Shown: piece by piece, positions 1 to 36,081 of the stretch | How positions within the stretch are numbered: the stretch's first letter is position 1 | Layout: the number at the start of each line of letters is the position of its first letter | Origin: a virus | Lineage: Duplodnaviria > Caudoviricetes | Direction: 5' to 3' (one strand) | DNA: 36,081 nucleotides | Virus record (IMG/VR): IMGVR_UViG_3300016667_000113 | Coordinates: 1-36,081 of that record | Made by a program: the position numbers and the translations under genes | Notes under the pieces: generated by a model | Database searches by the model: none | What the model was told of the DNA's origin: nothing | The model's input: only the letters and a program-made list of their open reading frames with translations

Positions 1-173
1 CCTCCTAAGCACACAAAAAAGTGAAATAAAGAAATAATTAATGAGGGACAGATAAAATGCTAAAAAGACAAATAAATTCAACCACTTAGAAATATTTTCA
101 TGGGAGATGTGCACAAGGGCCAATATAGTGTCGTGTGAATGCTAAAAAGTTGCTCACAAGGGTCTAAAAAGTA

Positions 174-202
174 TTGACAAACGCGAGGAAGTATGATACA
201 TT
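174..202 (+). promoter_or_regulatory. sigma70 promoter for terminase operon
   Basis: TTGACA (174-179), 17 bp spacer, TACATT (197-202) preceded by TGn extended -10. Confidence 0.75.
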
Positions 203-522: not shown

Positions 523-915
523 ATGGAAGAAAACAAACGTGGAAGAGGTCGCCCTAAGAAGGGTGAAATTGTTGCAGTAAAAAATAAGAATAAAGGTGTA
601 CTTGGTAGACCTAAAGGGGATGCTGCCATCATCAACGAATATAAGATTCGTATGTTGAACAGTCCCAAGTCTGCTAAAGTGTTAGAGGCCATTTACGATG
701 CTGCCCTCAATGACGATCACAAAAACCAAGCAGCAGCGTGGAAGCTCATTGTAGACCGTATTGTTCCTGTGTCTGCCTTTGAACAGACAAAGGCGGGAGG
801 CGGTACGCCGAGCATTTCCATCAACATCACTGGCCTCAATCAACCTACAGTTGAAGCAGAGCAGGTGTATGACATTACGGACGTAGAGATGAAAGAAGAC
901 GATGACCAGTCTTAA
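523..915 (+). CDS. terS: terminase small subunit
   Basis: 130 aa directly upstream of and overlapping terL; basic N-terminus with GRP motifs; AAGGA SD. Confidence 0.7.
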   Translation: MEENKRGRGRPKKGEIVAVKNKNKGVLGRPKGDAAIINEYKIRMLNSPKSAKVLEAIYDAALNDDHKNQAAAWKLIVDRIVPVSAFEQTKAGGGTPSISINITGLNQPTVEAEQVYDITDVEMKEDDDQS

Positions 916-2176
916 TTTCTCCCTCCTCAAATGGCAACAAACTGTCTTTAAGGACAAGAGCCGCTTCAAGGTGGTGGCTGCTGGGCGTCGATGTGGCAAG
1001 AGCCGTCTATCGGCTGTTACGCTGCTCATAGAGGCTTTAAATTGTCCTGAAGGGTCTAGTGTCATGTACATTGCCCCTACGCTTGGGCAAGCTCGTACAA
1101 TTATCTGGGACTTGCTGCATGAGCTGGGCAGGCCCGTCATTAAGAGCAGCCATGTCAACAACTTGGAGATAACGCTCGTTAATGGAAGGAAAATCTTGGT
1201 TAGAGGGGCAGACAACCCAGACTCCCTCCGAGGTGTAAGTTTGGTGTATGTCGTCTTGGACGAATGTGCCTTTATTAAGGTGGATGTCTGGGAGAAAATC
1301 ATCCGTGCTGCCTTGTCTGACCGCAAGGGCCGTGCCTTGTTCATTTCCACACCTTCAGGCCGTAATTGGTTTTATGAGGTGTTCAAGCAGGGCCAAAAGG
1401 ATAAAGAAGACGAAGGCTTTGACGAGGAATGGAAAAGCTGGCATTTCACCACCCAGGACAACGAAACCATCGATCCAAAGGAAATTGAGGCTGCTAAGAG
1501 GTCTTTGAGCAGCTTTGCCTTTAAACAGGAATATTTGTCTTCCTTCGACAATGCAGGGGCTGACATCTTCAAAGAGGAATGGCTCAAATACGACAAAGAG
1601 CCTAGCTACGGAAGCTATGTCATTGCGATTGACTTGGCTGGCTTTGAACAAGTGGCTAAAAACGCAGGAAGTGCTAAACGTAAGCTTGATGAAAGCTCCA
1701 TTTCAATTGTGAAGGTGGGAGACAATGGGGACTGGTGGGTGAAGGACATTGTTCATGGACGCTGGGACATTCGGGAAACTGCTTCTCGTATTCTTATGGC
1801 TATTCGCGATCATCAGCCCATTGCTGTTGGCATTGAAAGAGGGGCTCTAAGGAATGCCGTTCAGCCCTATCTCGAAGATCTCATGCGAAAGAACAACATC
1901 TACGCCCACATCCAAGACCTGACACACGGGAACAAAAAGAAGACAGACAGGGTTATTTGGAGCCTTCAGGGACGCTTTGAGCATGGACGCATCAAGCTCA
2001 ATGAAGACAAGGAATGGGGTGAGTTTATTGACCAATATCTGATGTTTCCCACAGCAGGTGTCCATGACGACCTCATTGACTCCCTTTCCTACGTCGATCA
2101 ACTGGCAGTTGTGGCCTACAACGCCGATTATGACGAAGATGAATGGGAAATTATAGATAGTGTCTCAGGATATTAA
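902..2176 (+). CDS. terL: terminase large subunit
   Basis: Walker A AGRRCGKS, Walker B VVLDE, coupling motif ISTP, nuclease IAIDLA and HDDLID. Confidence 0.95.
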   Translation: MTSLNFSLLKWQQTVFKDKSRFKVVAAGRRCGKSRLSAVTLLIEALNCPEGSSVMYIAPTLGQARTIIWDLLHELGRPVIKSSHVNNLEITLVNGRKILVRGADNPDSLRGVSLVYVVLDECAFIKVDVWEKIIRAALSDRKGRALFISTPSGRNWFYEVFKQGQKDKEDEGFDEEWKSWHFTTQDNETIDPKEIEAAKRSLSSFAFKQEYLSSFDNAGADIFKEEWLKYDKEPSYGSYVIAIDLAGFEQVAKNAGSAKRKLDESSISIVKVGDNGDWWVKDIVHGRWDIRETASRILMAIRDHQPIAVGIERGALRNAVQPYLEDLMRKNNIYAHIQDLTHGNKKKTDRVIWSLQGRFEHGRIKLNEDKEWGEFIDQYLMFPTAGVHDDLIDSLSYVDQLAVVAYNADYDEDEWEIIDSVSGY

Positions 2177-9171: not shown

Positions 9172-9198
9172 GGGCTCCTCTTCGGAGGAGTCCTTTTT
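9172..9198 (+). terminator. rho-independent terminator after capsid gene
   Basis: GGGCTCCTC-TTCG-GAGGAGTCC-TTTTT (C-UUCG-G tetraloop, U tract). Confidence 0.9.
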
Positions 9199-9233
9199 AG
9201 AGGGCTTAGAGAGTCTTCCAGAAAGGAAAAAAG

Positions 9234-9628: not shown

Positions 9629-9659
9629 ACACACAGCGTGAATCAAAGCGGAGATTTTC

Positions 9660-10028: not shown

Positions 10029-10035
10029 GGCTAAT

Positions 10036-12778: not shown

Positions 12779-13596
12779 GTGATTATACAAAAAGTACAAA
12801 CTTTACTTCCAAGGATAGCTTGGCTAGTGGAAATCCGTTGAAGATTGTCAAGGGCACTGAGATTGACACTGAGTTTAACAACATTGCTACGGCCATCTCT
12901 ACGAAAGCTGATTTGGCAAGCCCCACGCTTACAGGAACTCCAGCAGCTCCTACGGCTACGGCAGGAACAAACACCACTCAGTTGGCTACCACAGCGTTTG
13001 TTACAACGGCTGTTGCTAACGCCTCGTCTGCGGCTTCTTCCACCTATGCTCCGTTGGCAAGTCCTGCCCTGACGGGAACTCCGACAGCTCCTACGGCATC
13101 TCCTGGAACAAGTACGACACAAGTGGCTACCACTGCTTTTGTAAGCACTGCTGTGAGCAATGCTCTGGCTGCTGCCTATCCTGTTGGCTCCGTTTACATG
13201 AATGCTACCAACTCCACTAATCCGGCCACTTTGCTGGGTTTTGGTACTTGGGTGGCTTTGGGCGCCGGGCGCATGTTGGTTGGCTTTAGCTCAGGAGATC
13301 CGCTGTTTGGCACCGCAGGAAATACAGGCGGTAGCCGCGATGCAACGCTTCCCAGCCACTCCCACTCTATTACTGATCCGGGCCACGTTCACACGTATCG
13401 TTGGTTTGACCCAAACAACTCTGCCGCATCTTTGTCTACGCCATACGGCGCAAGGCCGTTTGGATATGTGGATGGAGTTTCGACAAACTTTGGTTCGGCA
13501 ACAACAGGCATTAGCGTGAACACAACAGGTACATCTGCCACCAACGCCAACCTGCCGCCGTATTTGACTGTGTATATGTGGCAGCGTACTGCCTAA
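12775..13596 (+). CDS. short tail fibre / needle-like protein
   Basis: EIDTEFNNIATAI N-terminal anchor, two SPxLTGTPxAPT...TTQxATTAFV repeats, YPVGSVY...FGTW...NLPPYLTVYMWQRTA collar/tip domain. Confidence 0.75.
   Translation: MSDYTKSTNFTSKDSLASGNPLKIVKGTEIDTEFNNIATAISTKADLASPTLTGTPAAPTATAGTNTTQLATTAFVTTAVANASSAASSTYAPLASPALTGTPTAPTASPGTSTTQVATTAFVSTAVSNALAAAYPVGSVYMNATNSTNPATLLGFGTWVALGAGRMLVGFSSGDPLFGTAGNTGGSRDATLPSHSHSITDPGHVHTYRWFDPNNSAASLSTPYGARPFGYVDGVSTNFGSATTGISVNTTGTSATNANLPPYLTVYMWQRTA
12907..13164 (+). repeat. tandem ~39-aa tail fibre repeat (2 copies)
   Basis: aa 45-83 (12907-13023) vs aa 92-130 (13048-13164). Confidence 0.85.
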
Positions 13597-13884
13597 ATGA
13601 AAACTCCTGTGTGTATTAAGCCGGAATATGTCCTCTATCTTGAGTGGTTTGGAGGGCATTCCTGGTTTCACACAGATGTTTTTAAATGGAACAAAACAAC
13701 AAAGAAACAATTTGTTAAAGATGTGACACAAGTGCAATCTTTACTTCCCTTGCCTCTATTGGCATTTGTTGAAGAAGAAAAGACACAAGTGGCTAAATTT
13801 GCAGAAAAGGTGGGGTTTGTCTTGAAAGAAACAATTATGTCTAAAGAAGGACAACGTGCCTTCATTTACGCTTGGAGTAAATAA
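13597..13884 (+). CDS. GNAT-like protein preceding ejection genes
   Basis: 95 aa, KFAEKVGF resembles the GNAT C-terminal motif; position analogous to T7 gp13. Confidence 0.5.
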   Translation: MKTPVCIKPEYVLYLEWFGGHSWFHTDVFKWNKTTKKQFVKDVTQVQSLLPLPLLAFVEEEKTQVAKFAEKVGFVLKETIMSKEGQRAFIYAWSK

Positions 13885-15038
13885 TGGGAAGTTTAGTTAG
13901 CTCAGTTGGTGATCTTTTTGGTATTGGGCCAGCCTCACGACAAGCAGAAGCAACAAAAAGTGCAGCACAAACATCCGCTGCTGCTCAATTGGAAGCTGCA
14001 CGTTTGGCCGCTGAAGCACAGAAGTTTCGTCCTGTAGGCGTCACTTCTCGTTTTGGATCGAGTCAATTTGAAATGACTCCTGAAGGCTATCTCAAGAGTG
14101 CTGGATATACACTGTCTCCTGAGCTGCAAGCCATTCAAGACTATGTGATGGGTCAAACCCGCACAGGTTTGGGGGACATTGGAGCTTTGCAAGCTATGGG
14201 TAGAAACTACCTGGGAATGACACAGGGCACTCCTGTGCAAACCTTGGGTGAGCAATACATGGCTTCTACGGCTGGCAGTCCTCTGACAGCTCTGGGGTCT
14301 AGTTATTTGTCTGCTTCTCCTGAACAAGCTGCTGCTGATTGGATGGCTAAACAACAAGCTGTTCTTCAGCCGGGTCGTGAAAGGGCTTTGTCTGGTGTTC
14401 GTAATAACTTGTTCCAGACAGGTCGTACAGGCTTGTCTACGGCTCAAGGGGGACAACTTGGAGCTGCCAATCCTGAACTGCAAGCCTATTACAATGCCTT
14501 GGCTCAACAAGACGCACAACTTGCTGCTGAGGCTGCCGCACAAGGACGAGCACAACAGCAGTTTGGCGCTGGTTTGTTGCAAGCTGGAACAGGTTTGACA
14601 CAGGCTCAACAACTTGCAGGCGCGCAATTGTACGGCACTGGTTTGGGTCTTACGCAGCAAGGCATCGGATTTGGTCAAGGTTTGTTGTCCAGTGCTTATG
14701 CTCCGTTGCAGACAGGTTTGGGCCTTGGAGCCACCATCGAACAACTGGGTCAACAGCCTTTGGATATTGGCGCTCAGTTGGGTGGTCGTTCTGCTACGGC
14801 AGGAGCAAACGTTGGACAAAGTTTGATGGCAGGCGGTCTGGGAGCTGCTAAGACGTTGCAAGCCGCAAATCAATACAGTCCTCTTGCTGCTGGCTTGTAT
14901 GGCTTGTCTCAAAGCCGTCTAGGATCTGCTGCTGACCAATCTTTGATTGATTGGACTAAAGGATTGTTTGGGGGCGGTGGCGGTGTCAATCTGGGTGACA
15001 CTTCTGGCCTCGACGCAATGAGCTCTTTGTGGTATTAA
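13884..15038 (+). CDS. internal virion / DNA ejection protein
   Basis: 384 aa G/A/Q-rich low complexity, MGSLVSSVGDLFG start; first of three large post-tail ORFs. Confidence 0.7.
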   Translation: MGSLVSSVGDLFGIGPASRQAEATKSAAQTSAAAQLEAARLAAEAQKFRPVGVTSRFGSSQFEMTPEGYLKSAGYTLSPELQAIQDYVMGQTRTGLGDIGALQAMGRNYLGMTQGTPVQTLGEQYMASTAGSPLTALGSSYLSASPEQAAADWMAKQQAVLQPGRERALSGVRNNLFQTGRTGLSTAQGGQLGAANPELQAYYNALAQQDAQLAAEAAAQGRAQQQFGAGLLQAGTGLTQAQQLAGAQLYGTGLGLTQQGIGFGQGLLSSAYAPLQTGLGLGATIEQLGQQPLDIGAQLGGRSATAGANVGQSLMAGGLGAAKTLQAANQYSPLAAGLYGLSQSRLGSAADQSLIDWTKGLFGGGGGVNLGDTSGLDAMSSLWY

Positions 15039-15047
15039 GGAATAAAC

Positions 15048-16121
15048 ATGGCAGATAACACTTCTATTGTTGGTAGCTTGTTTGGTACGCCTGAGATGTA
15101 CGATCAAGCTCGCCGTGAACAATTTGCTTCTCAAGCAGCTCAACTTTCTCAGCTCAATCCTTCAGCGTTGGCAAACTTTTATGCCATGCAAACAGGCTTT
15201 GGTGCAGGCGATCAGATTGCAGGTGCTTTGGGTGTTCAAGACCCGATGATGCAACGAATTTCTCAGCAACAACAAATGCTGAAAGATGTTGATTTTACCA
15301 ATGTTCAATCATTGGCTGAAGCAGCTCGTCAAGCTACGGCTATGGGTCGTCCTGACATTGCTCAACAACTTGCTAAACAAGCAATTGACATTCAGTCTAA
15401 GATTGACGAAAAACAAGCAGCCCGGGAACAAGCTTTGGCAATTGCCAGGGAAAGAAACGCTGCTGTACTTGAAGCAGCTCGTGAAAGATCTAATGCAACT
15501 ATTGAAGCAGCTAAAGAAAGAGGAGCCACTCAGACACAAATTGCTGCAATGCAAATTGAAGCTCGTAAAGAACTTGCCAATCTTGCAGCCGCTTTGAAGC
15601 AAGGACAACAAGCAGCCAAGCCTTTGTCTACTAAAGACATTGAAATGGCAAATGAGCTGTCTGCCGCGGTTAAAGATTCTGAATACGGCATAAATGAAGC
15701 TAAACGCTTTACTGAGATGATTGATAAAGGCACTGTTAAATTTGGTGCTGTCGAAAACTTGGCAACTAAAGCCCGTTCTTTTGCTGGTCAAGCAACTCCT
15801 AGTGATGTCGCTAAATCTGACTTGGAAAAGTGGATTACTTCTTCCATCAACGCTGTTCTCAATCAAGCCAAAGGTGTGCAGGCTAAAGATGACGCTGAAC
15901 GTGCTCAACGTCAAATTATGGAAGCTTTGGACAAGAATGATCCTAAGCTGGTAAAGAACGGTATTGCAAGAATTCAGAAACTGTTGGAAAATACCAAAGA
16001 GAATGCAACTAGCGGCTTGGAACTGCTTGGTCAAGAGCGTAATCGAGATCTGGCAGGACGAGTAACAGCTCCTGCTGCCCCTGCTGCGGAAACTGGTGGT
16101 TGGTCTATTAAACGGAAATAA
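15048..16121 (+). CDS. internal virion / DNA ejection protein
   Basis: 357 aa A/Q-rich helical; AAGGA SD. Confidence 0.65.
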   Translation: MADNTSIVGSLFGTPEMYDQARREQFASQAAQLSQLNPSALANFYAMQTGFGAGDQIAGALGVQDPMMQRISQQQQMLKDVDFTNVQSLAEAARQATAMGRPDIAQQLAKQAIDIQSKIDEKQAAREQALAIARERNAAVLEAARERSNATIEAAKERGATQTQIAAMQIEARKELANLAAALKQGQQAAKPLSTKDIEMANELSAAVKDSEYGINEAKRFTEMIDKGTVKFGAVENLATKARSFAGQATPSDVAKSDLEKWITSSINAVLNQAKGVQAKDDAERAQRQIMEALDKNDPKLVKNGIARIQKLLENTKENATSGLELLGQERNRDLAGRVTAPAAPAAETGGWSIKRK

Positions 16122-16123
16122 AT

Positions 16124-18178
16124 ATGGCTACATACGAAATTACAGCCCCTGATGGGAACACTTATGAAGTGAATGCTCCCGAAGGAGCTTCAGAAGCGCA
16201 GGTTTTGGCGTATGTAAAAAGCAATTATAAAAACTTAGGGGCTGCTCCTCAGCCTCAAGCTCCTAAAACACCTGCTCAAGCTCCAGATAGCGTTGCTATG
16301 GGTTTGGGTGATATTGTTTATGGAGCTGGTCAGTTGCTGGCTAAAGGGATGCAAAATCTCCCTGAAGGTCTTACTGTCATGGGTCGTCCTGTGGCAGCTT
16401 CTGCTCGTGCTTTTGCTGAGAAAGTGGTTCCCCAACGTGAAGCCCAATATGAAGCACAACGTCAGGCTGCTGGAGAAGGAGGCTTTGATTTTGGGCGGCT
16501 TATGGGCAACATCATCAATCCTTTGAGTTATGTTGCTGCTCCTGTAGCAAATCCTGTTGTTCGTTCGGCTGTCACTGGCGGGATGTTAGGGGCCGCACAG
16601 CCTGTTACGAATAAAGAAGATTTCTGGTCTACAAAGGCTTTACAGGCAGGTCTTGGTACTGTCATTGGTCCTTTGGCTGATTTGGGTGTTGCTGGTGTAG
16701 GTAAGGTTGCAGAAGCCATTAAAGGCTTAACACCCGCTGGCCGAGACAAAGCCATGCAGAAATATGTTGAAGGTTTGGCTGGTCCTGAGAAAGACGCTGT
16801 TATTAAAGCTCTTCAAGACGCTAAACACCTGGTGACGGGCAGTAAGCCTACGGTTGCTGAAGCTTTGTCTGACATTCCTTCTGCTGCCGATTTGGTGGCT
16901 GCTCAAGCTAAACTCTCTTCTAAAGAAGGATTGGCTGGTCAATTTGCTGCTCGAACGGCTGAACAACAAGCTGCCCGTCTACGTACCATTCAACAGATTG
17001 CAGGGACAGAAGCGGAGAAAGCTGCTGTAGAGGCTGAACGTGCTGCTGTTACTGGTGCTCAACGTGAACAAGCCTTGACAATGGCAAACACAGCTATGGA
17101 GGCTTCTCAAACTATTGAACAGCAAGTGATGAAGCAAGCCCGACAACTGGCTAAAGTGTCAGAAGAAATGACTCAGGGGACAGGCACTGCTCCTTCTGTA
17201 TTTACTTTACAAGGCGCTCAGACTGCTCAAAATCTCAAAACGCTACAGTTGAAAGCTCTTCAAGAAAATGGTGTTTTCCCTTTAATGTCTAAGGATATTG
17301 TATCTCAGATTGACAAAGCAATTTCTGGTACTGAGTCTGACATGAGCAAGGCTGTCTTGGGCGCAGTAAAGGATAAAATCTTGTCTAAAACCGACAAAGA
17401 CGGGTTCATCAGTAGTCGTGATTTGTATGAGAACGTCCGTAAAACTTCCAATCAAGACATTGCTAAACTTTTAGGTCTTGGAGAACAGTTCGCTTCTGGG
17501 GGTATTCCTGAGCAGGCTGCTAAAGCCCTAGGTAATGTTAAGAAATACATTGATGCTTCATTAGACAAGTCTTCAGATGGTTTGTGGTCTAAGTATCTGA
17601 ACAACTACAGCCAATATTCTGATAAACTCAATCGTATGGAGATCGGGGAATATCTGTCTAAGAAACTCAATACGGCTCTGGACAAGGAACGCGCTGCTGT
17701 ATTCTCTAACGCAGTAGACAATGCTGCTACGACAATTAAACAAGCTACAGGCATTCCTCGTTATGAGAAACTGGAACAAGTGCTGACAAAGCCTGAAATG
17801 GCCGCTGTAAACAATGTGCTGGCAGACCTAACCCGTCAACGTAAAGCACAAGAGCTTGCCTCTAAGGTTGGACAATTGGATAAAGGTTTAGTGGATGTCG
17901 CTGGGGCAGTTCCTCCCTGGTTGGACAAAACAGTGACGGTATTGAAAGAAGGGCTGCGTTATCTCCAACAAGGTAGTCAGGATAAGTTCAATCAGAAGAT
18001 GACTGAGCTTATGCTTGATCCTCAAAAGATGGCTCAGGTTCTTACTGCTGGTGTGGATAAACAACGTCTTGCTCCTTTGACAGCTTCAATTATGAAGAAT
18101 TTGAACGAAGCAAACCGTAACAGTTTCATTCAGGTGTTCACTATTCCTACAGTTGGGCAAGCAGCCGGAGGACAATAA
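16124..18178 (+). CDS. large internal virion / DNA ejection protein
   Basis: 684 aa, N-terminal YEITAPDGNTYEVNAPEGAS motif, G/A-rich membrane-like segment, helical C-terminus. Confidence 0.7.
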   Translation: MATYEITAPDGNTYEVNAPEGASEAQVLAYVKSNYKNLGAAPQPQAPKTPAQAPDSVAMGLGDIVYGAGQLLAKGMQNLPEGLTVMGRPVAASARAFAEKVVPQREAQYEAQRQAAGEGGFDFGRLMGNIINPLSYVAAPVANPVVRSAVTGGMLGAAQPVTNKEDFWSTKALQAGLGTVIGPLADLGVAGVGKVAEAIKGLTPAGRDKAMQKYVEGLAGPEKDAVIKALQDAKHLVTGSKPTVAEALSDIPSAADLVAAQAKLSSKEGLAGQFAARTAEQQAARLRTIQQIAGTEAEKAAVEAERAAVTGAQREQALTMANTAMEASQTIEQQVMKQARQLAKVSEEMTQGTGTAPSVFTLQGAQTAQNLKTLQLKALQENGVFPLMSKDIVSQIDKAISGTESDMSKAVLGAVKDKILSKTDKDGFISSRDLYENVRKTSNQDIAKLLGLGEQFASGGIPEQAAKALGNVKKYIDASLDKSSDGLWSKYLNNYSQYSDKLNRMEIGEYLSKKLNTALDKERAAVFSNAVDNAATTIKQATGIPRYEKLEQVLTKPEMAAVNNVLADLTRQRKAQELASKVGQLDKGLVDVAGAVPPWLDKTVTVLKEGLRYLQQGSQDKFNQKMTELMLDPQKMAQVLTAGVDKQRLAPLTASIMKNLNEANRNSFIQVFTIPTVGQAAGGQ

Positions 18179-18179
18179 A

Positions 18180-18911
18180 ATTGATCCTATAAGCCTCCTT
18201 ATGGCAGCACAAGCAACTGTGGCGGCTATCCGTCGCGGTTGTGAAATGCTGTCACAGGGAAAGCAGGAGATACAGAAGGTAAAGAAGGCGGTAGATGACG
18301 CTAAGGCCATATTCAAGGAAGCTAAAGGAATATGGACGTTTATTAAAGGATTGTTTAACAAGGCTCCGCCTCCTGCGCCTGTTCAAGAGGCTCAACCTGC
18401 TCCAGTAAAACCAACAAAGAAGTCTAAAGAGCAGCCTCTAAGCTACGAGGAATATCGCACACAGATGATAAACGATGTGTGTGAACAGCTTAAGAGCTTC
18501 TTTGAGATATATCGACAGCTTAGGGAGCATTGTCTAGTTTTAGAAGAGAAGTCAGCAGACGATCCAAACATAGAAGCCAACTCGATTGACAGGGTGAACA
18601 TAGAGCTTCAAATGGAGAATATGTCCAATCAAATCAGGGAGACAATGGTATATGCCCCTTCTGAGTTGAAAGACATCTATAGCAGATTTCTGGAGATGTA
18701 TGGACGCATCTTAGAAGAGCAAGAATTTAAGAGACAGCTTGAGCGTAGAAAGCGCATAGAAGAGCAATGGCGAAAACACCTCCTACGCAATCACCTTTTG
18801 GACAGAGCCCTTACAGCAGGAACAATAGTGGCAATAGTGATATGGCTATGGGCAATGCTACTATCGCTAGGATGGCTCGTGAGGACACCAGATGGTTTGT
18901 CATTGCAGTAG
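18180..18911 (+). CDS. coiled-coil protein with C-terminal TM helix (lysis-adjacent); probable ATT start
   Basis: GGAGG 18167-18171 lies 8 nt before in-frame ATT 18180; C-terminal TM TIVAIVIWLWAMLLSLGWLV. Confidence 0.65.
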   Translation: MDPISLLMAAQATVAAIRRGCEMLSQGKQEIQKVKKAVDDAKAIFKEAKGIWTFIKGLFNKAPPPAPVQEAQPAPVKPTKKSKEQPLSYEEYRTQMINDVCEQLKSFFEIYRQLREHCLVLEEKSADDPNIEANSIDRVNIELQMENMSNQIRETMVYAPSELKDIYSRFLEMYGRILEEQEFKRQLERRKRIEEQWRKHLLRNHLLDRALTAGTIVAIVIWLWAMLLSLGWLVRTPDGLSLQ

Positions 18912-19048
18912 TTATCTTGTCCCTGGTGCTCTTCCTAGCTCTTCCTTTGTCTGTTCTTATAGCCATTGACACAATGAAGATGAAGGCTCAGGTGAAGGCT
19001 GAATTGAGAGAATTGAAGCAAATTAAGAGAGAGTTGAAGGAGAAATAA
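18767..19048 (+). CDS. membrane protein overlapping previous gene (possible spanin-like)
   Basis: TM WFVIAVVILSLVLFLALPLSVLIAI then coiled coil; TAATG coupled to holin; start uncertain. Confidence 0.6.
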   Translation: MAKTPPTQSPFGQSPYSRNNSGNSDMAMGNATIARMAREDTRWFVIAVVILSLVLFLALPLSVLIAIDTMKMKAQVKAELRELKQIKRELKEK

Positions 19049-19536
19049 TGTTACCTATCGTTGCTGGAATTGTTGCCAACCTCATTAACAACGGCATGCA
19101 CAAGGTTGCAGACCAAGTGATTGAGAAAGGCGTAGACGCTGTGCAGGAGAAGCTTGGCATTGAGCTCAAGCCTGAAGGGGAAGCCACCCCCGAATACAAC
19201 GACAAGCTCAAAGCAGAGGCTATGAAACATGCTGAATTCATGGCTGAGCTGGACGAGAAGAGCACACAACGTGCTACGGATATGTACATGAAAGACGAGG
19301 GGACACGCAAGTTTAGCCAAGCCTATGCCTGGTTTATCACCGCTGTGTCGTTCCTCTATTTCTTCATGGTGTCGTTCATGCCCATTGAGAACCGCAACCG
19401 TGACTTCATCAACATTATTCTCGGCTTTCTTATTGGCACGGCTGTGAACTCGCTCATTCGTTTCTTCTACGGGTCTAGTAACAAGAGCCAAGAGGCTGTA
19501 GACCAGAAGCAAAAGGAGCAAGGAAACAATGGTTGA
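19048..19536 (+). CDS. putative holin
   Basis: Two clear TM helices plus hydrophobic N-terminus, FFYGSS motif; directly upstream of endolysin. Confidence 0.7.
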   Translation: MLPIVAGIVANLINNGMHKVADQVIEKGVDAVQEKLGIELKPEGEATPEYNDKLKAEAMKHAEFMAELDEKSTQRATDMYMKDEGTRKFSQAYAWFITAVSFLYFFMVSFMPIENRNRDFINIILGFLIGTAVNSLIRFFYGSSNKSQEAVDQKQKEQGNNG

Positions 19537-20179
19537 AGAAGCTCATCTCAAAGCTGCTGGCGTCAAAGACCCCGCTAAATGGATTGACGCTGTAAGAGTC
19601 ACCTGTGAGGAGTTTGAGATAAATACGCCTCAACGCATTGCCTCTTTCTTGGCTCAGACGGCCCATGAGTCAGGCGGCTACACAATGTTGTCTGAAAACC
19701 TCAACTACAGGGCTGCTACGCTGGCTGCCTGCTGGCCTAACAGGTTTGCTGAGCTTGGCCCCGATAAGAAACCAAAGAAGGACGCCAATGGCAAACTTAT
19801 TCCTACAGGCGTGGCTAATAGCATTGCAGGAAAGCCTGAGCTTATCGCTAATCTGGTGTACTCCTCTCGTATGGGCAACGGATCGGCAGAGACAGGAGAA
19901 GGCTGGAAATATCGTGGACGAGGCCTGAAACAGCTCACAGGGAAGGACAATTATGCACGTTGTGGCGCTTATCTTGGCCTTGACCTGGTGGGCAACCCTG
20001 ACCAGCTCCTTGAGCCTCTTCCAGCAGCCCGTAGTGCAGGATGGTTTTGGAAGACCAACAACCTGTCTACCTTTGCAGATGCAGGAGACATCAAAGGCAT
20101 GACCAAGAAGATAAATGGAGGCTTTATTGGTCTAGAGGATAGGGAAAAGAGATATAGAGCTGTTCTAGCAGCCTTCTAA
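19529..20179 (+). CDS. endolysin, glycoside hydrolase family 19
   Basis: FLAQTAHES, ENLNY, YRGRGLKQLTG, SAGWFW, TKKINGG signatures. Confidence 0.92.
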   Translation: MVEEAHLKAAGVKDPAKWIDAVRVTCEEFEINTPQRIASFLAQTAHESGGYTMLSENLNYRAATLAACWPNRFAELGPDKKPKKDANGKLIPTGVANSIAGKPELIANLVYSSRMGNGSAETGEGWKYRGRGLKQLTGKDNYARCGAYLGLDLVGNPDQLLEPLPAARSAGWFWKTNNLSTFADAGDIKGMTKKINGGFIGLEDREKRYRAVLAAF

Positions 20180-20180
20180 C

Positions 20181-20213
20181 AGAAAAGGGACTCAAACGAG
20201 TCCCTTTCTTTTA
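20181..20213. terminator. bidirectional rho-independent terminator between late and early arms
   Basis: AAAGGGACTC-AAAC-GAGTCCCTTT with A tract before and T tract after; between convergent genes. Confidence 0.85.
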
Positions 20214-20372: not shown

Positions 20373-22283
20373 TTAGAAGCTCACTTCGCAGCCGCCTGCG
20401 CTACAAGCAAGCGTCTGCGTGCCTTCAACGTTGTCCGTGTTCTCAATAAATGAGTCCCAATCAATGTCTTGAGGCATTTTAGACGACAGGTCGTGGTAGG
20501 TGTATTCGTCGATGGTCTCATAAGGAGCCTGACGATAAGTGCCTCCGTCCATAGGCAGGAAAGACACACCCGTAATTTCATCGAAATGCTGCCACACCCA
20601 TGCACCCACTTCAGGCCATTCCTCTTCCTTGACGCTAATGGTGACTGAGGGCTTATGCTCACACCAATGACGCTGGAAGATGAGCCACAGCTTCAGATGT
20701 TCAATGGCTGTCAGGTCTTCACGCAACACAGCGCCTTTCTCAACCCGCATAGGGAAGCTAAACACCGTGGTGGAGTCAGGCTTCATCACACAAGGTTCAG
20801 ACGGGAACCCCTGCTGCTTCAGGAATGCAGTAAGAGGGTCTTTATTGTCAGATCGCACACGGCGGATGTAAAAGCTACTATGCTGAGGATGGATACCACT
20901 AGCCGTCCCTGTGAGCTGAGAAACAGTTCCTTCGGGCTTAACACAAGTGATAGCAGCACTACGATTGATGCCAATATTGTCAGCGAATTCAGCGTTTGCA
21001 GCAATAGCAACATTCTTCAGCTCCTCAAGGCGTTTAGGAAGGTCAAGGTCGTTAGGCGAGTTTAGCAGCATGTTATCCAAGATGCCAGTCATAGACACGC
21101 CCAACAGACGCTCTTCCTCGGTGTTGGTCTGCCAAATCTTACGCAGATATGGGAAGTGTGTCAACGTGCTTTGGAACGTGCCGAGAATGGTTGCCAACCT
21201 TACCTTGCGTTTGAGACTGTCCATTGTGTCATCCGAACGGACAGCAACAGAAGACAGGTTGCAAAACTGGTAAGGGCGAAGGATGATTTCAGAACAAGGA
21301 TTAGTGCCCCACTCTTTATCCAGCTCACGCCGTTCATTCTTAGCTGCTTGTAGCTCAGAGGCGTAACGGTTGAAAATGCCTCGCTCCCCAGAGTGGCTTT
21401 CATAAATGTTGCTCCATTCACGCATAAACTGACCGACATCTGGCTTCTGATTGTACACAGCCGAGTTGTTAGCCAAGGCACGCTGTCCCTGACCGTCCCA
21501 CCAATTCCCTGCTTTGGCGTGGGCCATGCGGTCGTCAGAGAGGTCTGACAAGCTAATCATAGCACTACGACGTACTCCACCAACCACAACGACTTCTCCG
21601 ATCTTACAGAGCAAATCGTGGGCTTCAATGGAGTGAAGCTTCCGACCTTTAGCTGCCTTAAACTTTTCCACTGTATATTTGAACAGTTCAACCAACGGCT
21701 CGGGGCCGCTGGCGCGTCCTCCAAAAGTTTTAAGCCGTGCACCTGCGGGACGAACTGACGAAACATCCCAACGAGGGATTTCACCTGCATAAAGCAATGC
21801 AATGAGTTGTCTAAGGCTCTTGGCCCAACCTTCCTTGGAGTCTTTAACCACAATGGTAGTAGCAGACTCAAACAACTGAGCAGGGATTTCAGGGAGTTTA
21901 GAGACATATTTCTGCTCCACAGAGAAGCCTACACCTGTGCCACAGAGCAGGATGTACATGGCTTCGTCAAAGGCTTTGGGGTCGTCAATGGGCAAATAGG
22001 AGCAGTTGTAGCCAGCAATGTTCTGGCGCTCCAAAGCCTCTCCAGCGGTCATAATGGAACGCATAGAGGGCAGCACCTCACGAGCATTAATGGCGTTGAA
22101 CAGCTCTTTACGGAGGCTGGGTTCAATGGTATAGCTGTGCTTGTCTTTCAGATGCTTTTCCATGAACGACATATATCGTTCTACGGTTTCGTCCCAATGC
22201 TCACGACGGCCTTTGTCGTCCAAAAAGCGGCTGTATCGGCTTTTTGCAATGTAAGTTTGGTAGGGGGTCATTTCAGTGGTCAT
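20373..22283 (-). CDS. nrdJ: class II (adenosylcobalamin-dependent) ribonucleotide reductase
   Basis: YNCS, VGGVRRSA, GTNPCSEI, FCNL, TCVKPEGT, C-terminal CSAGGC; no small subunit gene in window. Confidence 0.92.
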   Translation of the reverse strand: MTTEMTPYQTYIAKSRYSRFLDDKGRREHWDETVERYMSFMEKHLKDKHSYTIEPSLRKELFNAINAREVLPSMRSIMTAGEALERQNIAGYNCSYLPIDDPKAFDEAMYILLCGTGVGFSVEQKYVSKLPEIPAQLFESATTIVVKDSKEGWAKSLRQLIALLYAGEIPRWDVSSVRPAGARLKTFGGRASGPEPLVELFKYTVEKFKAAKGRKLHSIEAHDLLCKIGEVVVVGGVRRSAMISLSDLSDDRMAHAKAGNWWDGQGQRALANNSAVYNQKPDVGQFMREWSNIYESHSGERGIFNRYASELQAAKNERRELDKEWGTNPCSEIILRPYQFCNLSSVAVRSDDTMDSLKRKVRLATILGTFQSTLTHFPYLRKIWQTNTEEERLLGVSMTGILDNMLLNSPNDLDLPKRLEELKNVAIAANAEFADNIGINRSAAITCVKPEGTVSQLTGTASGIHPQHSSFYIRRVRSDNKDPLTAFLKQQGFPSEPCVMKPDSTTVFSFPMRVEKGAVLREDLTAIEHLKLWLIFQRHWCEHKPSVTISVKEEEWPEVGAWVWQHFDEITGVSFLPMDGGTYRQAPYETIDEYTYHDLSSKMPQDIDWDSFIENTDNVEGTQTLACSAGGCEVSF

Positions 22284-26921: not shown

Positions 26922-27125
26922 TCATTGTAAATATTTAGCTTCTCTGCTAATGGCATCCTCAGCAGCAGATTCGATGTGATCGAGAGCTGCTGTGAGAATT
27001 AGGTAGACATCTACGATGTCATAATTGTCGCTGTGCATCAATACAAAACTCTTGTCACTGATGTTCAGCAAAATCTGTCCCTCAATGGGTGTCTCTCCAA
27101 GATTTTCCAATTTTGTATTCTCCAT
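26922..27125 (-). CDS. hypothetical protein
   Basis: 67 aa overlapping polA 3' end by 44 nt; fills gap in operon. Confidence 0.6.
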   Translation of the reverse strand: MENTKLENLGETPIEGQILLNISDKSFVLMHSDNYDIVDVYLILTAALDHIESAAEDAISREAKYLQ

Positions 27126-28794
27126 CTAAAGGACAACGCAAGCGGAAATGTTCACCCGCTTCTCGAATTGATTGTACAGCACTTTTGCCAACAAACTCAG
27201 CATATTCAGGTTTTGTTTCAATCTGAATCTCATCGTGAACATTAGCTACCATCTTGAAGAATACTTTTTCTTGTAGAAGTTTCTTCTCAAAGATAACTAA
27301 AGCTTTCTTCATTACAATAGCCCCTGCGCCTTGAAGTAGGCTATTGAGTGCCGCATGTTCACTACGTACCCAAATCTTACGACCATCAAGCCCCGGTACA
27401 TAGCCCTCCACTGCGTAGCGCCCGACCGTTTCACGTAGACGTTGCAGCGCGGGAGTGCTTTTAAGAAATCTATTCTTGAGGCGTTCTCCGTCACGAGCAC
27501 TGCCTCCGACGATGGAGCCGATTTTCGCGTCACCGGCCCCGTAGAGGAACGCATAGATAAACGTTTTCGCTTGGTCGCGGGTAGATAAACCCGCAGCTCT
27601 CTGGTTAACGGTATGGACATCCGTTCCATCTTTAGACGATCCCTCAGTGACGGTTTTGACATACGCTTCATCCTTCATGTAATGAGCCAACATACGAAGC
27701 TCCAGGCCACTGGCGTCAGCGCCTACGAGCACGTTTCCTTCTTCCACAGTCCAACATTGACGACATTCAGGCCCATAAGGGCTGCCTGCGTTGGGCACTT
27801 GAGCCATATTAGGACTGCTGTGTGTCATACGGCCTGTCACAGCCCCGTTTGTCATCACTCGGCCATGCACACGACCATCTGAAGCGCAAGCGTCCACCCA
27901 CGATTCAATCTGAGCAATGCGTTTCTGCAACATCAAATATTCTGCAATGAGTTTGGCTTCTGGAATGTCAACACCCATCAATGTTGTTTCATCCACAATG
28001 GGTTGATTGGTTTCTGTAAACTTCTTAGGCTTCCATCCTAGTTCTTGGAGCTTTTCTCCGATTTGCTTTCGGCTTCCGGGATTGAAGACAACAATCTCAT
28101 CCTTGAGCCGCTTTCCTGTCTTTTCGCTGTAGCGTTCATTGACGATTGGGGGCCATCGCTTTTGCATCTGGTCATCAATGTCTGCCATTTTTCCTTTGAG
28201 GTTAGCAAGAAGCAAGGTTGCATGTTGTATGTCCAGTTTAAAGCCGTTACGTTCTTGTTGAGCAATTATGGAAGCCACCTGGTGTTCCAATTCAACGCTC
28301 TCATCAGAGAATTCCTTTGATGCACAATCTCGTTGAAGACGATGAAAAAGAGCACATAGAACGGCAACATCGCGTACACAATAATGCTCAAGCAAACCAC
28401 TGTGAGGGTTGTCAAAGCATTCACCAGGATAGGTCTCATCTCGTCCTTCCAGCCATGTCCACACGGCTTTGTAGTTAAGCTTGGCCTCGCCGAGTTCTTC
28501 GCCCCATGCCTCTAGGCTGTGCCCTTTCTCCCTCGTCGGATCGAGAAGACGGCTTACGACTAACGTATCGTACACCTTCTTCCTCGTAATATTCGTCTTC
28601 CACAATCTGTTTAGGATCGGAAAATCGAAAGCGATTCCATTCTGGGCCACTATTAATGTAGCCTTTTCTAGATAGTCGTTGAGGCCATTTGGATTTTTCC
28701 ATACTTTTACAACACCTGTATCAATTTCTTGAGTAACACAAAGCCATATTTTGTCATGGCTCATGTTTGTTTCAATGTCAAGAGCTACTTTCAT
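27082..28794 (-). CDS. polA: family A DNA polymerase (T7-like) with 3'-5' exonuclease domain
   Basis: ExoI LDIET, motif A DASGLELR, motif B KTFIYAFLYG, motif C VHDE. Confidence 0.96.
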   Translation of the reverse strand: MKVALDIETNMSHDKIWLCVTQEIDTGVVKVWKNPNGLNDYLEKATLIVAQNGIAFDFPILNRLWKTNITRKKVYDTLVVSRLLDPTREKGHSLEAWGEELGEAKLNYKAVWTWLEGRDETYPGECFDNPHSGLLEHYCVRDVAVLCALFHRLQRDCASKEFSDESVELEHQVASIIAQQERNGFKLDIQHATLLLANLKGKMADIDDQMQKRWPPIVNERYSEKTGKRLKDEIVVFNPGSRKQIGEKLQELGWKPKKFTETNQPIVDETTLMGVDIPEAKLIAEYLMLQKRIAQIESWVDACASDGRVHGRVMTNGAVTGRMTHSSPNMAQVPNAGSPYGPECRQCWTVEEGNVLVGADASGLELRMLAHYMKDEAYVKTVTEGSSKDGTDVHTVNQRAAGLSTRDQAKTFIYAFLYGAGDAKIGSIVGGSARDGERLKNRFLKSTPALQRLRETVGRYAVEGYVPGLDGRKIWVRSEHAALNSLLQGAGAIVMKKALVIFEKKLLQEKVFFKMVANVHDEIQIETKPEYAEFVGKSAVQSIREAGEHFRLRCPLDGEYKIGKSWRDTH

Positions 28795-30818: not shown

Positions 30819-31002
30819 TGTTCACTTTCGTTACAATCCACTGAGAAGGAAAACAAAACCAGTCATGCACAAGAGCCAAGGCTTCTACGAGCTTCTCACG
30901 TTCTCCTGGCTCAAACAAACTGTCATCGCCCTCTTTCAATCGATCATATTCCTTCTTGAGCTCGCTAGAAATAAAATTGTCCAAGTCTTCCGAAGTCATC
31001 AT
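30811..31002 (-). CDS. hypothetical protein
   Basis: 63 aa, GGAGG SD, ATGA overlap with primase-helicase stop. Confidence 0.65.
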   Translation of the reverse strand: MMTSEDLDNFISSELKKEYDRLKEGDDSLFEPGEREKLVEALALVHDWFCFPSQWIVTKVNND

Positions 31003-32609
31003 AGTTCCTCCAAAGTAATTTCGTTCATACGCCCTGTTTCCAAATCATACATCAAAGAACATGCAGGCCCAGTGTCGCCTGTGTAGCGGTTCTTTGCAAT
31101 AGCCACTTTAGTTTTATGCCTGATTGTAGGGTCTTCAGCCATGCTATTACGAGTAAGGGTAATAACAGCATCTGACAACTGTGCAATAGCTCCGCTTCCT
31201 CGCAATTGAGACAAACTCACAGCTTCCCCGTCTTCGTGGCCTGAATTGCCATTAGGACGCTTCAAATGGCTCACAGCAATGAGCGTAATTTCTAGTTCCT
31301 GCACCAATGTTCGCAAGCGTGTCATCAGATTGTCAATGGCTTTGCGTTCATCGCCGTTGTCAGCACCAGAGATGATAATAGAAATATGGTCAACAAAGAT
31401 GACACGACAGTCGCACGCCTTAGCCAGATAGCGGATGCGGTTGATGATGTTGTCAGCAGAGGTAGACCCAAAGTGATCGAACAAGAAAATACGATTAGTG
31501 CCCAGAGTAGCATCAAAAGCATCCTTTAGCTCTTCTTCGGAGGCCAGTGTGTCAGGGATGTGCAGCTTCTTATTTGCGTGCAGAGACATAATGCTCCGGG
31601 CTGTTTTTCGCACGCTCTCTTCGAGGAACATTCCTCCAATATTCCACTTTGTAGTGCGGAGAAGATGATAGAGAATTTCTCGGAGAAACTGAGACTTGCC
31701 CAGTCCGCTGCCTGCGGTAACCATGACGAGTTCGGCTGGCCGAAGTCCATAGAGTTTGTCATTGAGTCCTTTCCAGGGATAGAAGGCTTCTGCCTTTGGT
31801 TCAGGTTTGTTCACTACTTCCCAGAGGGAAGAAGCAGCGACAATACCATCAGGAACATAGGTTTCTGCTTTCCACCAGAGGTTGACAAAAGCTTCCCCTT
31901 TACCAGCCTTAAGATAGTCGCAAGCATCTTTATAGTCTCCTGTGTGCTTAAACACTTTAGCTTTACTTCCGAACAATTCAGCCACTTCCCCGGCTGCCTT
32001 GCGTCCTGGCTCGTCGTTGTCAAAGCATACGACAATGTTCTCAAACGACTCCAGATATTCATAATTATTTTTTGCATCCTTCAAAGCCCCTTGTGCGCCG
32101 TTTCTGATGGACACAACAGGCCATTTAGAACCAGTCATCTGAAAGGCTGCTAGAGCGTCCAGTTCACCTTCCACGAGGGTGATGTATTTGCCTCCCTTGG
32201 GGAACAACTGAGCCCCAAACAAAACAGCCTCACCCCATTGACCCTTCACTGTGAAGTCTTTGGCCTCTACGTCCCGCACCTTCTGAGCCACGTATTTGCC
32301 AGCCTTATCAAAATACGGGTAGACGTGCTTGCCATTGGTCTGCATGACATTGAAAGCCTCGCAGGTGGCCCGGCTGATTCCCCTATCGGAAATCGGTGCA
32401 ATGTCGCCTGTTAGCAGCATTGTGATAGGTTTAGGGGTGCTATTCATATCACTAGCGTGGCTGCGGTTACTAGTAATGCTTTCCCCCTCTGTCACCCCAC
32501 ATGCAAAGCAATGGAAATGCCCATCATCGTAGATGGCTCCTGCGTCACTTGAGCCGCAATGTTCACAAGGAACATGCCTTACAAAATTACTCTTCGTCTG
32601 TGTCTGCAT
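30999..32609 (-). CDS. T7 gp4-like DNA primase-helicase
   Basis: Zn finger CEHCGSSD...CFAC, TOPRIM EGELD / FDND, Walker A AGSGLGKS, VDHI, LRGSGAIAQLSD, KNRYTG; start placed at MQTQT. Confidence 0.95.
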   Translation of the reverse strand: MQTQTKSNFVRHVPCEHCGSSDAGAIYDDGHFHCFACGVTEGESITSNRSHASDMNSTPKPITMLLTGDIAPISDRGISRATCEAFNVMQTNGKHVYPYFDKAGKYVAQKVRDVEAKDFTVKGQWGEAVLFGAQLFPKGGKYITLVEGELDALAAFQMTGSKWPVVSIRNGAQGALKDAKNNYEYLESFENIVVCFDNDEPGRKAAGEVAELFGSKAKVFKHTGDYKDACDYLKAGKGEAFVNLWWKAETYVPDGIVAASSLWEVVNKPEPKAEAFYPWKGLNDKLYGLRPAELVMVTAGSGLGKSQFLREILYHLLRTTKWNIGGMFLEESVRKTARSIMSLHANKKLHIPDTLASEEELKDAFDATLGTNRIFLFDHFGSTSADNIINRIRYLAKACDCRVIFVDHISIIISGADNGDERKAIDNLMTRLRTLVQELEITLIAVSHLKRPNGNSGHEDGEAVSLSQLRGSGAIAQLSDAVITLTRNSMAEDPTIRHKTKVAIAKNRYTGDTGPACSLMYDLETGRMNEITLEEL

Positions 32610-34450: not shown

Positions 34451-34795
34451 TCATTCTCCAATGTATTCCGCTACTTCGGGCGTATTTTCGTCGATGTATT
34501 CGCCTTGTGTGATGTTACTTGCCACCCATTCAGCAGCAAAGTAGACAACGCTTCCCTTGAACGTATCCACATCATCCATGTTATCAAGGACGTATTGAGG
34601 AAGCTCGCCCGTTTCGTCCTTGTATTCGGCCAGCAAAGCGTGCAAAGCTGCGCCGTGTTCGTCATACAGAGTCACCAAGTCGCGAGTCCAGATAAGCCCG
34701 TGGTGGCCCGTGTTGGCCCCGTGGTTTGCCATATCTGCCAATTCATTGTGGCTGTAGGTGCGTTGCATGTGGGCTGTGAATGTGTTTTCTTGCAT
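34451..34795 (-). CDS. early hypothetical protein
   Basis: 114 aa acidic, DMANHGANTG...YFAAEWVA; AGGAG SD. Confidence 0.7.
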   Translation of the reverse strand: MQENTFTAHMQRTYSHNELADMANHGANTGHHGLIWTRDLVTLYDEHGAALHALLAEYKDETGELPQYVLDNMDDVDTFKGSVVYFAAEWVASNITQGEYIDENTPEVAEYIGE

Positions 34796-35596: not shown

Positions 35597-35612
35597 TGCA
35601 AGCACTGTGCCA
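35597..35612 (-). promoter_or_regulatory. sigma54 (RpoN) promoter at head of early operon
   Basis: - strand TGGCAC-AGTGC-TTGCA matches TGGCAC-N5-TTGCW; predicted +1 ~35586, 37 nt before first early ORF. Confidence 0.7.
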
Positions 35613-35710
35613 GCCCATATAAATTAATGCTTGAGTGTTACATTATAGACCATTTCGTGCCTTCAGTGTTACACTGCCTGGAAATGTAATACTTTTTTGT
35701 CTATTCCTAA

Positions 35711-35770
35711 GGCTCCATATTGGTGCATGAATGGCCTTGGTGCACTGCTTCGGTGCAAGACAATGCACCA
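35711..35770. promoter_or_regulatory. NtrC-type enhancer sites
   Basis: GGCTCCA-TAT-TGGTGCA (35711-35727), TGCACTG-CTT-CGGTGCA (35741-35757), extra half-sites TGGTGCA 35738 and TGCACCA 35764; consensus TGCACCA-N3-TGGTGCA. Confidence 0.6.
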
Positions 35771-35782
35771 GATTGATTAGCT

Positions 35783-35959
35783 TGTGGATAACTCAGTGAT
35801 TATGCACAAGTTATACATCTAGGCTGTGGATAACTTGGCAGATAGGTGGTTTCCCTTAGAACCTTAGTGGTGCTAAATAGGTGCTACTCCGTCCCTCATG
35901 TGTCCATCCTGTGGATAACTCATGTGACTTATACACAACAGTGAATATCCTGTGGATAA
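35783..35959. promoter_or_regulatory. cluster of six DnaA boxes
   Basis: TGTGGATAA at 35783, 35825, 35910, 35951; TTATGCACA at 35800; TTATACACA at 35929 (consensus TTATNCACA). Confidence 0.8.
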
Positions 35960-35971
35960 CTCTTGAGATAC

Positions 35972-36028
35972 TCAGTATGCTTATCATTAGAGACCTAATC
36001 ATCAGTATGCTGAACATTAGAGACCTAA
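35972..36028. repeat. 27-bp direct repeat, 30-bp period
   Basis: TCAGTATGCTtAtCATTAGAGACCTAA (35972-35998) vs TCAGTATGCTgAaCATTAGAGACCTAA (36002-36028). Confidence 0.9.
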
Positions 36029-36035
36029 GATGTAA

Positions 36036-36055
36036 GCTAGTGAGTGCTTACTAAC
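36036..36055. promoter_or_regulatory. SlmA-binding-site-like palindrome
   Basis: TA-GTGAGTGCTTAC-TA; core 10/12 to E. coli SBS GTGAGTACTCAC. Confidence 0.45.
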
Positions 36056-36081
36056 ATAGGGGGGGGGGGGGGGGGGGGGGG

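Follow-up and report, generated by a model that had tools for sequence, protein, structure and literature searches.

A cluster of six consensus DnaA boxes (matches to TTATNCACA) occupies 177 bp (35783..35959) of a podophage genome, in the non-coding stretch from which the two gene arms diverge. This array is real, phage-borne and phased, it is probably not an oriC, and it would belong with the host-factor hubs in phage terminal regions. Judged from motifs, the boxes are one of about ten kinds of putative host-type sites in the interval, and they may form part of a hub that senses host state for the early promoter, a reading that is put forward tentatively. The window, i.e., the whole stretch of DNA analysed, is the 36,081-nt virus record IMGVR_UViG_3300016667_000113 (positions 1 to 36,081).

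The DnaA-box array and its genome

The boxes form two triplets in which the strands alternate. The first consists of box 1 (35783..35791, minus strand), box 2 (35800..35808, plus) and box 3 (35825..35833, minus), and the second of box 4 (35910..35918, minus), box 5 (35929..35937, plus) and box 6 (35951..35959, minus). The number, places and strands of the boxes agree with the sequence-only reading, and its claim that the triplets are near-duplicates is confirmed by their alignment, with internal spacings of 17/25 and 19/22. Boxes 1, 3, 4 and 6 (4/6) are perfect 9-mers, and these four minus-strand boxes lie near-whole helical turns apart: 42 bp (four turns) from box 1 to box 3, 85 bp (eight turns) from box 3 to box 4, and 41 bp from box 4 to box 6. 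A degenerate box, TTATACATC, that had been noted 11 bp beyond box 2 (35811..35819, plus strand) is present, but it is weak because it differs from TTATCCACA at three positions, and it is absent from the list of box matches at two mismatches or fewer. Counted over the whole window, as had been proposed, matches to TTATNCACA number nine against a chance mean of 1.27, and none of 100 shuffles reaches nine. The largest number of boxes in any 200 bp is two over 300 dinucleotide shuffles, against six observed.

Other features of the array are less origin-like. Its AT content is 58%, and the best 30-bp window somewhere in 35600-36058 is 80% AT. What we take to be the DnaA-trio pattern gave no run at the array. 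There is no exact IHF match within it, and two matches with one mismatch lie at 35766 and 35789; eight IHF sites occur in 68 loci of relatives against 2.4 in shuffles, and seven in held-out loci against five for the reversed pattern. None of the 25 longest inverted repeats in the window is a long one over the array. Two 27-bp direct repeats that are 93% alike (35972..36028, plus strand) lie between box 6 and the SlmA-type site described below; other short tandem repeats are seen at this place in relatives.

The window is a near-complete 36-kb podophage genome. The start of a family-wide G-tract, referred to here as the right element (36059..36081, plus strand), runs into the poly-G tail of the contig, and this tract is kept in 60 of the 63 relatives with enough DNA upstream of terS. 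Position 1 of the window matches sequence about 40 bp past the G-tract in relatives, so that positions 1..21 (plus strand) correspond to the distal part of the same element and the two contig ends are genome neighbours. A probable source-run contig has 58 nt beyond position 1, with a second copy of positions 1-29. Because of the G-tract match, the position-1 match and this extension, the record is considered nearly complete (about 36.1 kb), a reading with which the completeness estimate for the record (46%) disagrees.

Family searches covered 58 ORFs. The plus-strand arm (523-20179) encodes terL, portal, capsid, tail and endolysin genes, and begins with terS and terL (523..2176), terS being assigned by position without a family match. 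The minus-strand arm, from 35549 down to 20373, carries the T7-type primase-helicase (30999..32609), the family A DNA polymerase PolA (27082..28794), an exonuclease, ThyX, MazG and, as the last early-arm gene, a class II ribonucleotide reductase (20373..22283). The replisome ascribed to the phage from its sequence thus stands for PolA and the primase-helicase, while its SSB (Enc34-type) is recognised by feature similarity only. No match to RNA polymerase, integrase, repressor, Rep or Par families, or to host-type regulator genes, was found among the 58 ORFs, and Rfam and tRNA scans of the window gave no match. The cumulative GC skew has its minimum at about 34-36 kb, which coincides with the divergence point of the gene arms.

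Several further features of the genome can be mentioned. A hairpin between A and T runs (about 20180-20212) lies between the converging arms and is likely a two-way terminator. The protein at the terS position (523-915), for which no family match was found, has two GRP motifs, which we take to resemble AT-hooks. A DUF5856 gene, Dps-like and labelled 'starvation-inducible', lies among the virion genes (9660-10028), and an acidic DUF7222 protein is encoded in the early arm (34451-34795); searches of the PDB and the atlas gave no support for the latter as an Ocr-like protein.

Cultured relatives are distant. A blastn search with the array found no match in 50,697 phage records, and none was found by portal at 1e-20. 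Compared with cultured phages, TerL reaches at best about 44% over half its length, the primase is below 50%, and the capsid is about 30-35% identical to that of Pf-WMP3/A-4L-type cyanophages.

About 100 bp separate the array from the poly-G tail at the contig end, and this position could point to an assembly artefact, a captured oriC fragment or a chance cluster. The array is nevertheless phage DNA and not a mis-joined oriC. It aligns with the same position in related phages at 70-76% (E-values down to 3e-27), whereas the best match to the fetched host loci, five dnaA regions included, is 16 nt long (E-value 0.45), and shuffles never reach the observed density. Parts of the array were also recovered in contigs from three further runs, of which one belongs to another study (35707-35921 together with 36035-36064; 35883-36064; 35783-35892). 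The mis-join that the sequence-only reading had named as a way to be wrong is thereby largely refuted, and an artefact of any kind can be given almost no credence.

Turnover, phasing and the probable genome end among relatives

Relatives were collected as 160 loci by TerL and primase, and in these the boxes are densest 600-1200 bp upstream of terS, where they reach up to 3.9 per kb against about 0.3 elsewhere. More loci were added by two pattern scans, and removal of near-duplicates left 128 intervals, each 650 bp long. The conservation that had been expected is supported, since 79/128 relatives have at least one box; 49 intervals have none, 20 have one and 59 have at least two, within a range of 0-8, and at least six boxes are seen in 3/128. 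The perfect 9-mer accounts for 78 of 99 boxes.

Although common, the boxes are not fixed. On a quick IQ-TREE tree of TerL (57 rows, from the 57 of 68 loci with a usable TerL), the state 'at least two boxes' changes 20 times, no fewer than with shuffled labels, and two rows with identical TerL differ in boxes. Since their presence is scattered over the terminase tree, the boxes appear to be optional. This speaks against the array being oriC-like, as do the 49 boxless relatives, the lack of a DnaA-trio at the array and its modest AT content. The alignment of relatives, the gain and loss of boxes and the contigs of other runs together remove the mis-join and make an essential origin unlikely.

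Helical phasing is a property of the family as well as of the window. For same-orientation boxes, the mean of cos(2*pi*d/10.5) is 0.59 (45 pairs in 28 loci) against a null of 0.03 +/- 0.10, none of 5000 redraws is as high, and a period scan peaks at 10.5 bp. The value is 0.43 in 60 held-out clusters, and 0.51 over the 42 distinct distances in all 128 loci. Boxes are also phased relative to NtrC sites (R 0.55, 16 distinct distances, p 0.008) and to TCA-repressor sites (R 0.81, nine distinct distances, p 0.003), while SlmA, Fur and RutR-like sites have no phasing with each other. All of these tests are weakened by the shared ancestry of the relatives, due to which the distances are not independent.

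The two triplets are separated by an element that is universal in the family, the left element (35880..35899, minus strand), which is the inverted partner of the G-tract. It was found in 98/98 loci, and in 67/68 loci with a matrix built from those same loci. By eye, it is not conserved as a sigma70 promoter or as the start of a mini-ORF. Six terS-side contigs start 3-22 bp beyond it, and the density of contig starts is 1.67 per kb at risk within 25 bp beyond it and about 0.1 at greater distances; contig ends on its other side show no pile-up of comparable sharpness. A fixed terminase cut between the two triplets is likely on the evidence of these contig ends, although assemblies of strain mixtures may also break where an element is conserved. 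The array straddles the element, and boxes remain in phase across it (85 and 127 bp). The depth over the array in source-run contigs is 7.3 against 10.8-10.9, so that there is no doubling, but depth taken from contigs says little about the terminus.

Host-type sites around the array

Outward from the early genes, the order of features in the window is the first early ORF (start at 35549), a sigma54-type promoter, NtrC-type sites, triplet 1, the left element, triplet 2, the 27-bp repeats, the SlmA-type site and the G-tract, followed past the contig break by a sigma70-type promoter and terS. The candidate sigma54-type (-24/-12) promoter into the early operon (35598..35612, minus strand) was recognised with a motif that we take to be the sigma54 type. 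An NtrC-type enhancer site at 35741..35757 is the only match in the window at one mismatch or fewer, and weaker sites lie at 35711-35727 and 35728-35744 by motif scan. The box array begins 26 bp from the NtrC-type site and about 170 bp from the sigma54-type promoter. The sigma70-type promoter (174..202, plus strand, promoter scan) would serve the packaging and virion arm.

Leftward sigma54 promoters precede the early genes in 75 of 127 relatives, 53 of them with NtrC sites; a consensus sigma70 promoter is found in 16, five of which also have sigma54. Neither type was found in the other 41, and 25 of these have the TCA operator. NtrC sites thus accompany 53/75 loci with a leftward sigma54 promoter but 9/52 loci without one (p 3e-9). 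The commonest sigma54-NtrC spacings in relatives are 113-116 and 145-146 bp. Relative to the 130-135 bp of three host glnA promoters, they are shorter by about two turns and longer by about one, and the layout matches host glnA promoters in 4/4 rpoN-bearing genomes; over all values the spacing is weakly phased (R 0.2). Just upstream of the sigma54 site in relatives, two palindromes recur, TGTA-N11-TACA (31/128) and TGTC-N8-GACA (20/128).

Boxes go together with these operators in part. At least two boxes occur in 51/88 loci with an NtrC or TCA site against 8/39 with neither (p 1e-4); NtrC sites considered by themselves do not predict boxes (32/62 against 27/65, p 0.29), and the lower share at consensus sigma70 early promoters (4/16 against 55/111, p 0.11) is not significant. 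Boxes are confined to the promoter-distal side of the left element in 9/38 loci. The rightward sigma70 promoter is present in 92/107 relatives against 10 in shuffles. The inner zone, in which the second triplet and most SlmA, Fur and NrdR sites are located, is poor in sigma70 promoters, with leftward ones in four loci and, in shuffles, in 19. Leftward sigma70 promoters that would fire through the array are no commoner than in shuffles. The NtrC sites and the outer boxes lie at candidate phage promoters, and the sites of the inner zone do not.

The remaining site classes were defined from k-mer counts and motif scans with motifs that were taken as known and partly tuned on the data, which is why 60 held-out loci are the fair test. 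Among the 128 loci, putative sites were scored for sigma54 in 90, DnaA in 79, SlmA in 69, NtrC in 62, an unassigned palindrome AGGG..CCCT in 51, a RutR-like motif in 44, the TCA operator in 28, Fur in 26, NrdR in 15, LexA in 11 and parS in eight, and 126/128 have at least one class. In the held-out loci there are 118 DnaA boxes against five for the reversed pattern and 3.7 in shuffles, 41 SlmA-type sites against three and 44 NtrC sites against none, and most classes are far above controls; LexA and parS have just two sites each against none, and IHF and XerD are not above controls. The NtrC, Fur, NrdR, LexA, parS and TCA-repressor types, unlike the SlmA type, are located in betaproteobacterial genomes before genes that such regulators should control, or are otherwise distributed as would be expected.

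The SlmA assignment is the less certain one, because the word is not enriched in most betaproteobacterial chromosomes. The sole SlmA-type site of the window (36040..36051) was scored with the consensus and degeneracy given in the available text of PMC3020112, i.e., a 12-bp palindrome with a purine at position 3 and a pyrimidine at position 6. At these free positions, the half-sites of the family have a pyrimidine at position 6 in 196/196 and a purine at position 3 in 154/196. In most betaproteobacterial genomes the word is not above the reversed control; there are four matches against none in Polynucleobacter, and six to seven against one to two in two gammaproteobacteria. The slmA gene is present in 16/28 genomes.

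The 14-bp palindrome GTCTTATATAAGAC, scored as the TCA operator, has betaproteobacterial titles for 60/80 among the matches listed. Of 29 loci picked from betaproteobacterial matches, 27 have it next to mdh, aceA, acnB/A or icd, often with a GntR/HutC gene among the neighbours; this is so in 0/4 loci from other groups. We take this to be an 'SdhR' site, a name for which the literature search found nothing. The Polynucleobacter checks covered 1.18 Mb of one genome, where LexA-type words are intergenic in 3/3 matches (recA, umuC, mraZ), Fur-type words in 4/4, feoB included, and NtrC-type words in 7/10, including glnA and amt. The LexA-type site upstream of mraZ places this motif at the division cluster.

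NrdR-type boxes precede nrdA in 5/5 hosts at two mismatches, with pairs 31-32 bp apart in three, and the phage pairs are 31-32 bp apart in 14/14. The exact NrdR pattern was found in 0/5 hosts, and the two-mismatch form is unspecific genome-wide, with 43 matches while its reversed control has 142. The parS word is present in 29/30 genomes against one for the control. The RutR-like and AGGG..CCCT palindromes gained no identity from the checks in bacterial genomes; a weak copy of the latter near-palindrome, with two mismatches, lies between the triplets at 35845..35856 (minus strand). An XerD-arm-like 11-mer is found in 16/58 loci, 0-450 bp downstream of the G-tract, and a complete dif or Xer site was rejected, since what we take to be the dif consensus leaves at most 6/11 XerC-arm matches beside it.

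Taken together, the site identities checked in bacteria point to a host that is probably a member of the Burkholderiales. The gene rpoN was found in four of five genomes, with no match in the one Polynucleobacter genome. Searches without a positive control found no match to TerL in 401 genomes of the family of one Comamonadaceae-titled genome, nor to the capsid in 241 genomes of the genus Polynucleobacter. Tandem box pairs of the phage pattern were not found in five host genomes, and the oriC of four Comamonadaceae-type genomes was not found near dnaA.

Possible roles of the array

Three ideas had been offered from the sequence: DnaA titration, a DnaA-dependent origin, and coupling of nearby promoters to DnaA-ATP. 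The last is now the likeliest of the three, because the boxes are phased with the NtrC sites of a sigma54 promoter; phasing and co-occurrence with sites of unrelated regulators suggest a complex built at a regulated promoter. The six boxes are predicted to bind host DnaA cooperatively, as a helically aligned array, within a putative control hub of host-protein sites at the likely genome end, where the left element would mark the terminase cut. DnaA would be one optional input, which with NtrC and sigma54 would set the timing of the early replication operon. DnaA-ATP, as a growth and cell-cycle signal, may tune the promoter in either direction; this would defer lysis in starved hosts, and a secondary consequence would be that the boxes titrate DnaA in the late phase of infection. 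As expected of a hub, the sites are concentrated in one terminal, intergenic region far above chance and fit regulators of the probable host group that the phage itself lacks. A sensor at the early promoter leaves the SlmA, Fur and NrdR sites of the inner zone unexplained, as no promoter lies beside them, and SlmA and ParB are not ordinary promoter regulators.

These inner sites would be accounted for if the region were a decoy similar to datA, in which the multiplying phage boxes would sequester DnaA and keep the host from re-initiating, a division inhibitor would be drawn onto the phage genome by the SlmA sites, and the NrdR, Fur, LexA and TCA-repressor sites would relieve supply genes of the host from repression. 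The sites are near-perfect (78/99 boxes), multiple and interchangeable, the NrdR-type pairs keep the spacing seen at host nrdA, and the array, with six boxes of which four are perfect, has the roughly five high-affinity boxes outside an origin that make a datA-type feature. In the available text of PMC3245932, plasmid-borne datA suppresses over-initiation in E. coli, but in B. subtilis it was not restrained by a box cluster carried in many plasmid copies; according to the available part of PMC4117426, Z-rings are blocked in cells with 4-fold more SlmA if a multicopy plasmid supplies SlmA sites. Titration needs no phasing between DnaA boxes and unrelated sites, the box count rises slightly with the counts of other sites instead of compensating for them (rho 0.20), by our own estimate abundant proteins may not be titrated by as few as one to six sites per genome, and the phage has its own RNR and ThyX. 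A decoy is rather unlikely. An unlikely role, too, is a structural one, with bound host proteins bending or coating the DNA around the terminase site, whether to gate the first cut until phage copies outnumber the host proteins, to shield the end from nucleases, or to anchor the incoming DNA, as has been proposed for the T5 iss. The phased boxes on both sides of the left element and the six contig starts next to it would fit, and perfect boxes are paired in about 11,000 stretches of viral contigs, some 50-fold more often than the reversed pattern (about 210), with spacings that peak at 11-13, 20-22 and 32-34 bp, while those of controls follow codon multiples. A terminase gene lies within 3 kb of at least 26/79 box-pair loci (98/157 long ORFs scanned) against 3/69 controls (87/120 ORFs scanned; nine giant-virus and two near-duplicate loci left out), a link that may only reflect the placement of non-coding DNA in phages, because the control pattern covers genes as well as intergenic DNA. 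T5-like phages keep eight paired boxes in the terminal repeat, in a model that is an in-silico proposal as far as the accessible text goes (10.1101/866236). Against a structural role, the putative terminus of the present genome comes from contig ends alone, which strain mixtures can also pile up, and the depth over the array is not doubled.

A DnaA-dependent origin, for first-round or plasmid-like replication, is very unlikely. Phased high-affinity boxes are found in origins, the skew minimum is close by, parS-type sites occur in 8/128 relatives, and a similar cluster of a box pair plus an inverted box precedes Polynucleobacter dnaA. The skew minimum, however, coincides with the divergence of the two gene arms, 49/128 relatives have no box, and boxes, parS and an SlmA site are combined in only four. 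An origin would further be expected to have an AT-rich trio element and to be retained in all relatives; the array has no DnaA-trio, 58% AT, no complete dif and no exact IHF match, no Rep, Par or integrase family was matched among the 58 ORFs, and no family member was found in the 401 and 241 host genomes, in the searches without a positive control. It is quite unlikely, although conceivable, that the terminal 500 bp are an entry or packaging checkpoint of host proteins. The end would be dressed as origin-proximal chromosome (DnaA, SlmA, ParB), with the first promoter placed on nitrogen status via sigma54 and NtrC; uptake or the first terminase cut would await DnaA, nitrogen, iron, dNTP or damage signals, and the phased DnaA arrays that thousands of other viral contigs have next to terminase genes would be further cases of this device. 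The hub, decoy, structural and origin readings are not mutually exclusive.

The closest parallels to a host-sensing early promoter are phages with CtrA sites. In the accessible part of PMC9437464, such sites in phage terminal repeats or gap regions bind CtrA, repress or activate phage promoters and defer lysis. They resemble the present family in their density within a non-coding gap or terminal repeat, in the position of the gap between divergent gene blocks, in gain and loss among relatives and in the use of a cell-cycle regulator as input (PMC9437464). The differences are that one regulator is involved there and about ten site types here, and that binding and regulation were shown there and are predicted from sequence here; that study found DnaA sites not to be skewed in their distribution in its phages (PMC9437464). 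Its accessible text also covers phi29 with Spo0A boxes and Spo0J sites, and GIL01 and CTX with LexA sites, i.e., virulent or repressor-less phages that use host proteins through ParB-type or LexA sites, as is proposed here, albeit in another host group and tied to sporulation or SOS (PMC9437464).

The T5 iss is alike in having a whole-turn box cluster in non-coding DNA at the end of a phage genome that encodes its own replisome, and its boxes were judged unrelated to replication by their author, as given in the available text (10.1101/866236). They are pairs 3 bp apart in 131-bp inverted repeats, nearly invariant and accompanied by the A1/A2 genes (10.1101/866236), whereas the window has optional triplets, no long inverted repeat and no A1/A2 family match. 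The datA locus and the B. subtilis clusters likewise have five or six high-affinity boxes outside the origin, and can restrain initiation and regulate neighbouring genes; they are chromosomal, datA works with IHF, for which the array has no exact site, and the multicopy effect differs between the E. coli and B. subtilis clusters, again by the accessible text of PMC3245932. In the dnaA-dnaN region, Polynucleobacter oriC shares the 9-mer and its flanks with the phage array, as well as inverted pairs and boxes spaced by 11 bp, but it also has an AT-rich stretch with trio-like repeats that the phage array lacks, and the phage family can dispense with the array. The available parts of PMC11512268 and PMC12484599 report phage origins that were predicted and contain DnaA boxes. 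Literature searches, for which subscription journals were mostly outside the scope, found no sigma54-NtrC phage promoter, no multi-regulator array or natural phage decoy array, and no phage SlmA, NrdR or TCA-repressor sites, SlmA and NrdR not having been search topics of their own.

If the array does sense host state, phages classed as strictly lytic would read or occupy a whole set of host regulators by means of DNA sites only, without encoding a protein for the purpose, and would swap regulator inputs quickly. The array is a small, clonable test case for the role of DnaA boxes in phage terminal regions, for which the T5 iss has so far offered an in-silico model only. The family adds a candidate sigma54/NtrC-driven phage early promoter, present in over half of its members, and candidate SlmA sites on phage DNA, and its operator set gives an indication of which host group this abundant, uncultured family of lake phages infects.

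The composition of the region can differ even within a clade. In one clade of four loci, the TCA operator, DnaA boxes and a rightward sigma54 site whose start is overlapped by a LexA box are packed, together with further sites, within about 550 bp upstream of the G-tract. The parS, Fur and NrdR-pair sites, and up to four SlmA-type sites, vary among these four loci.
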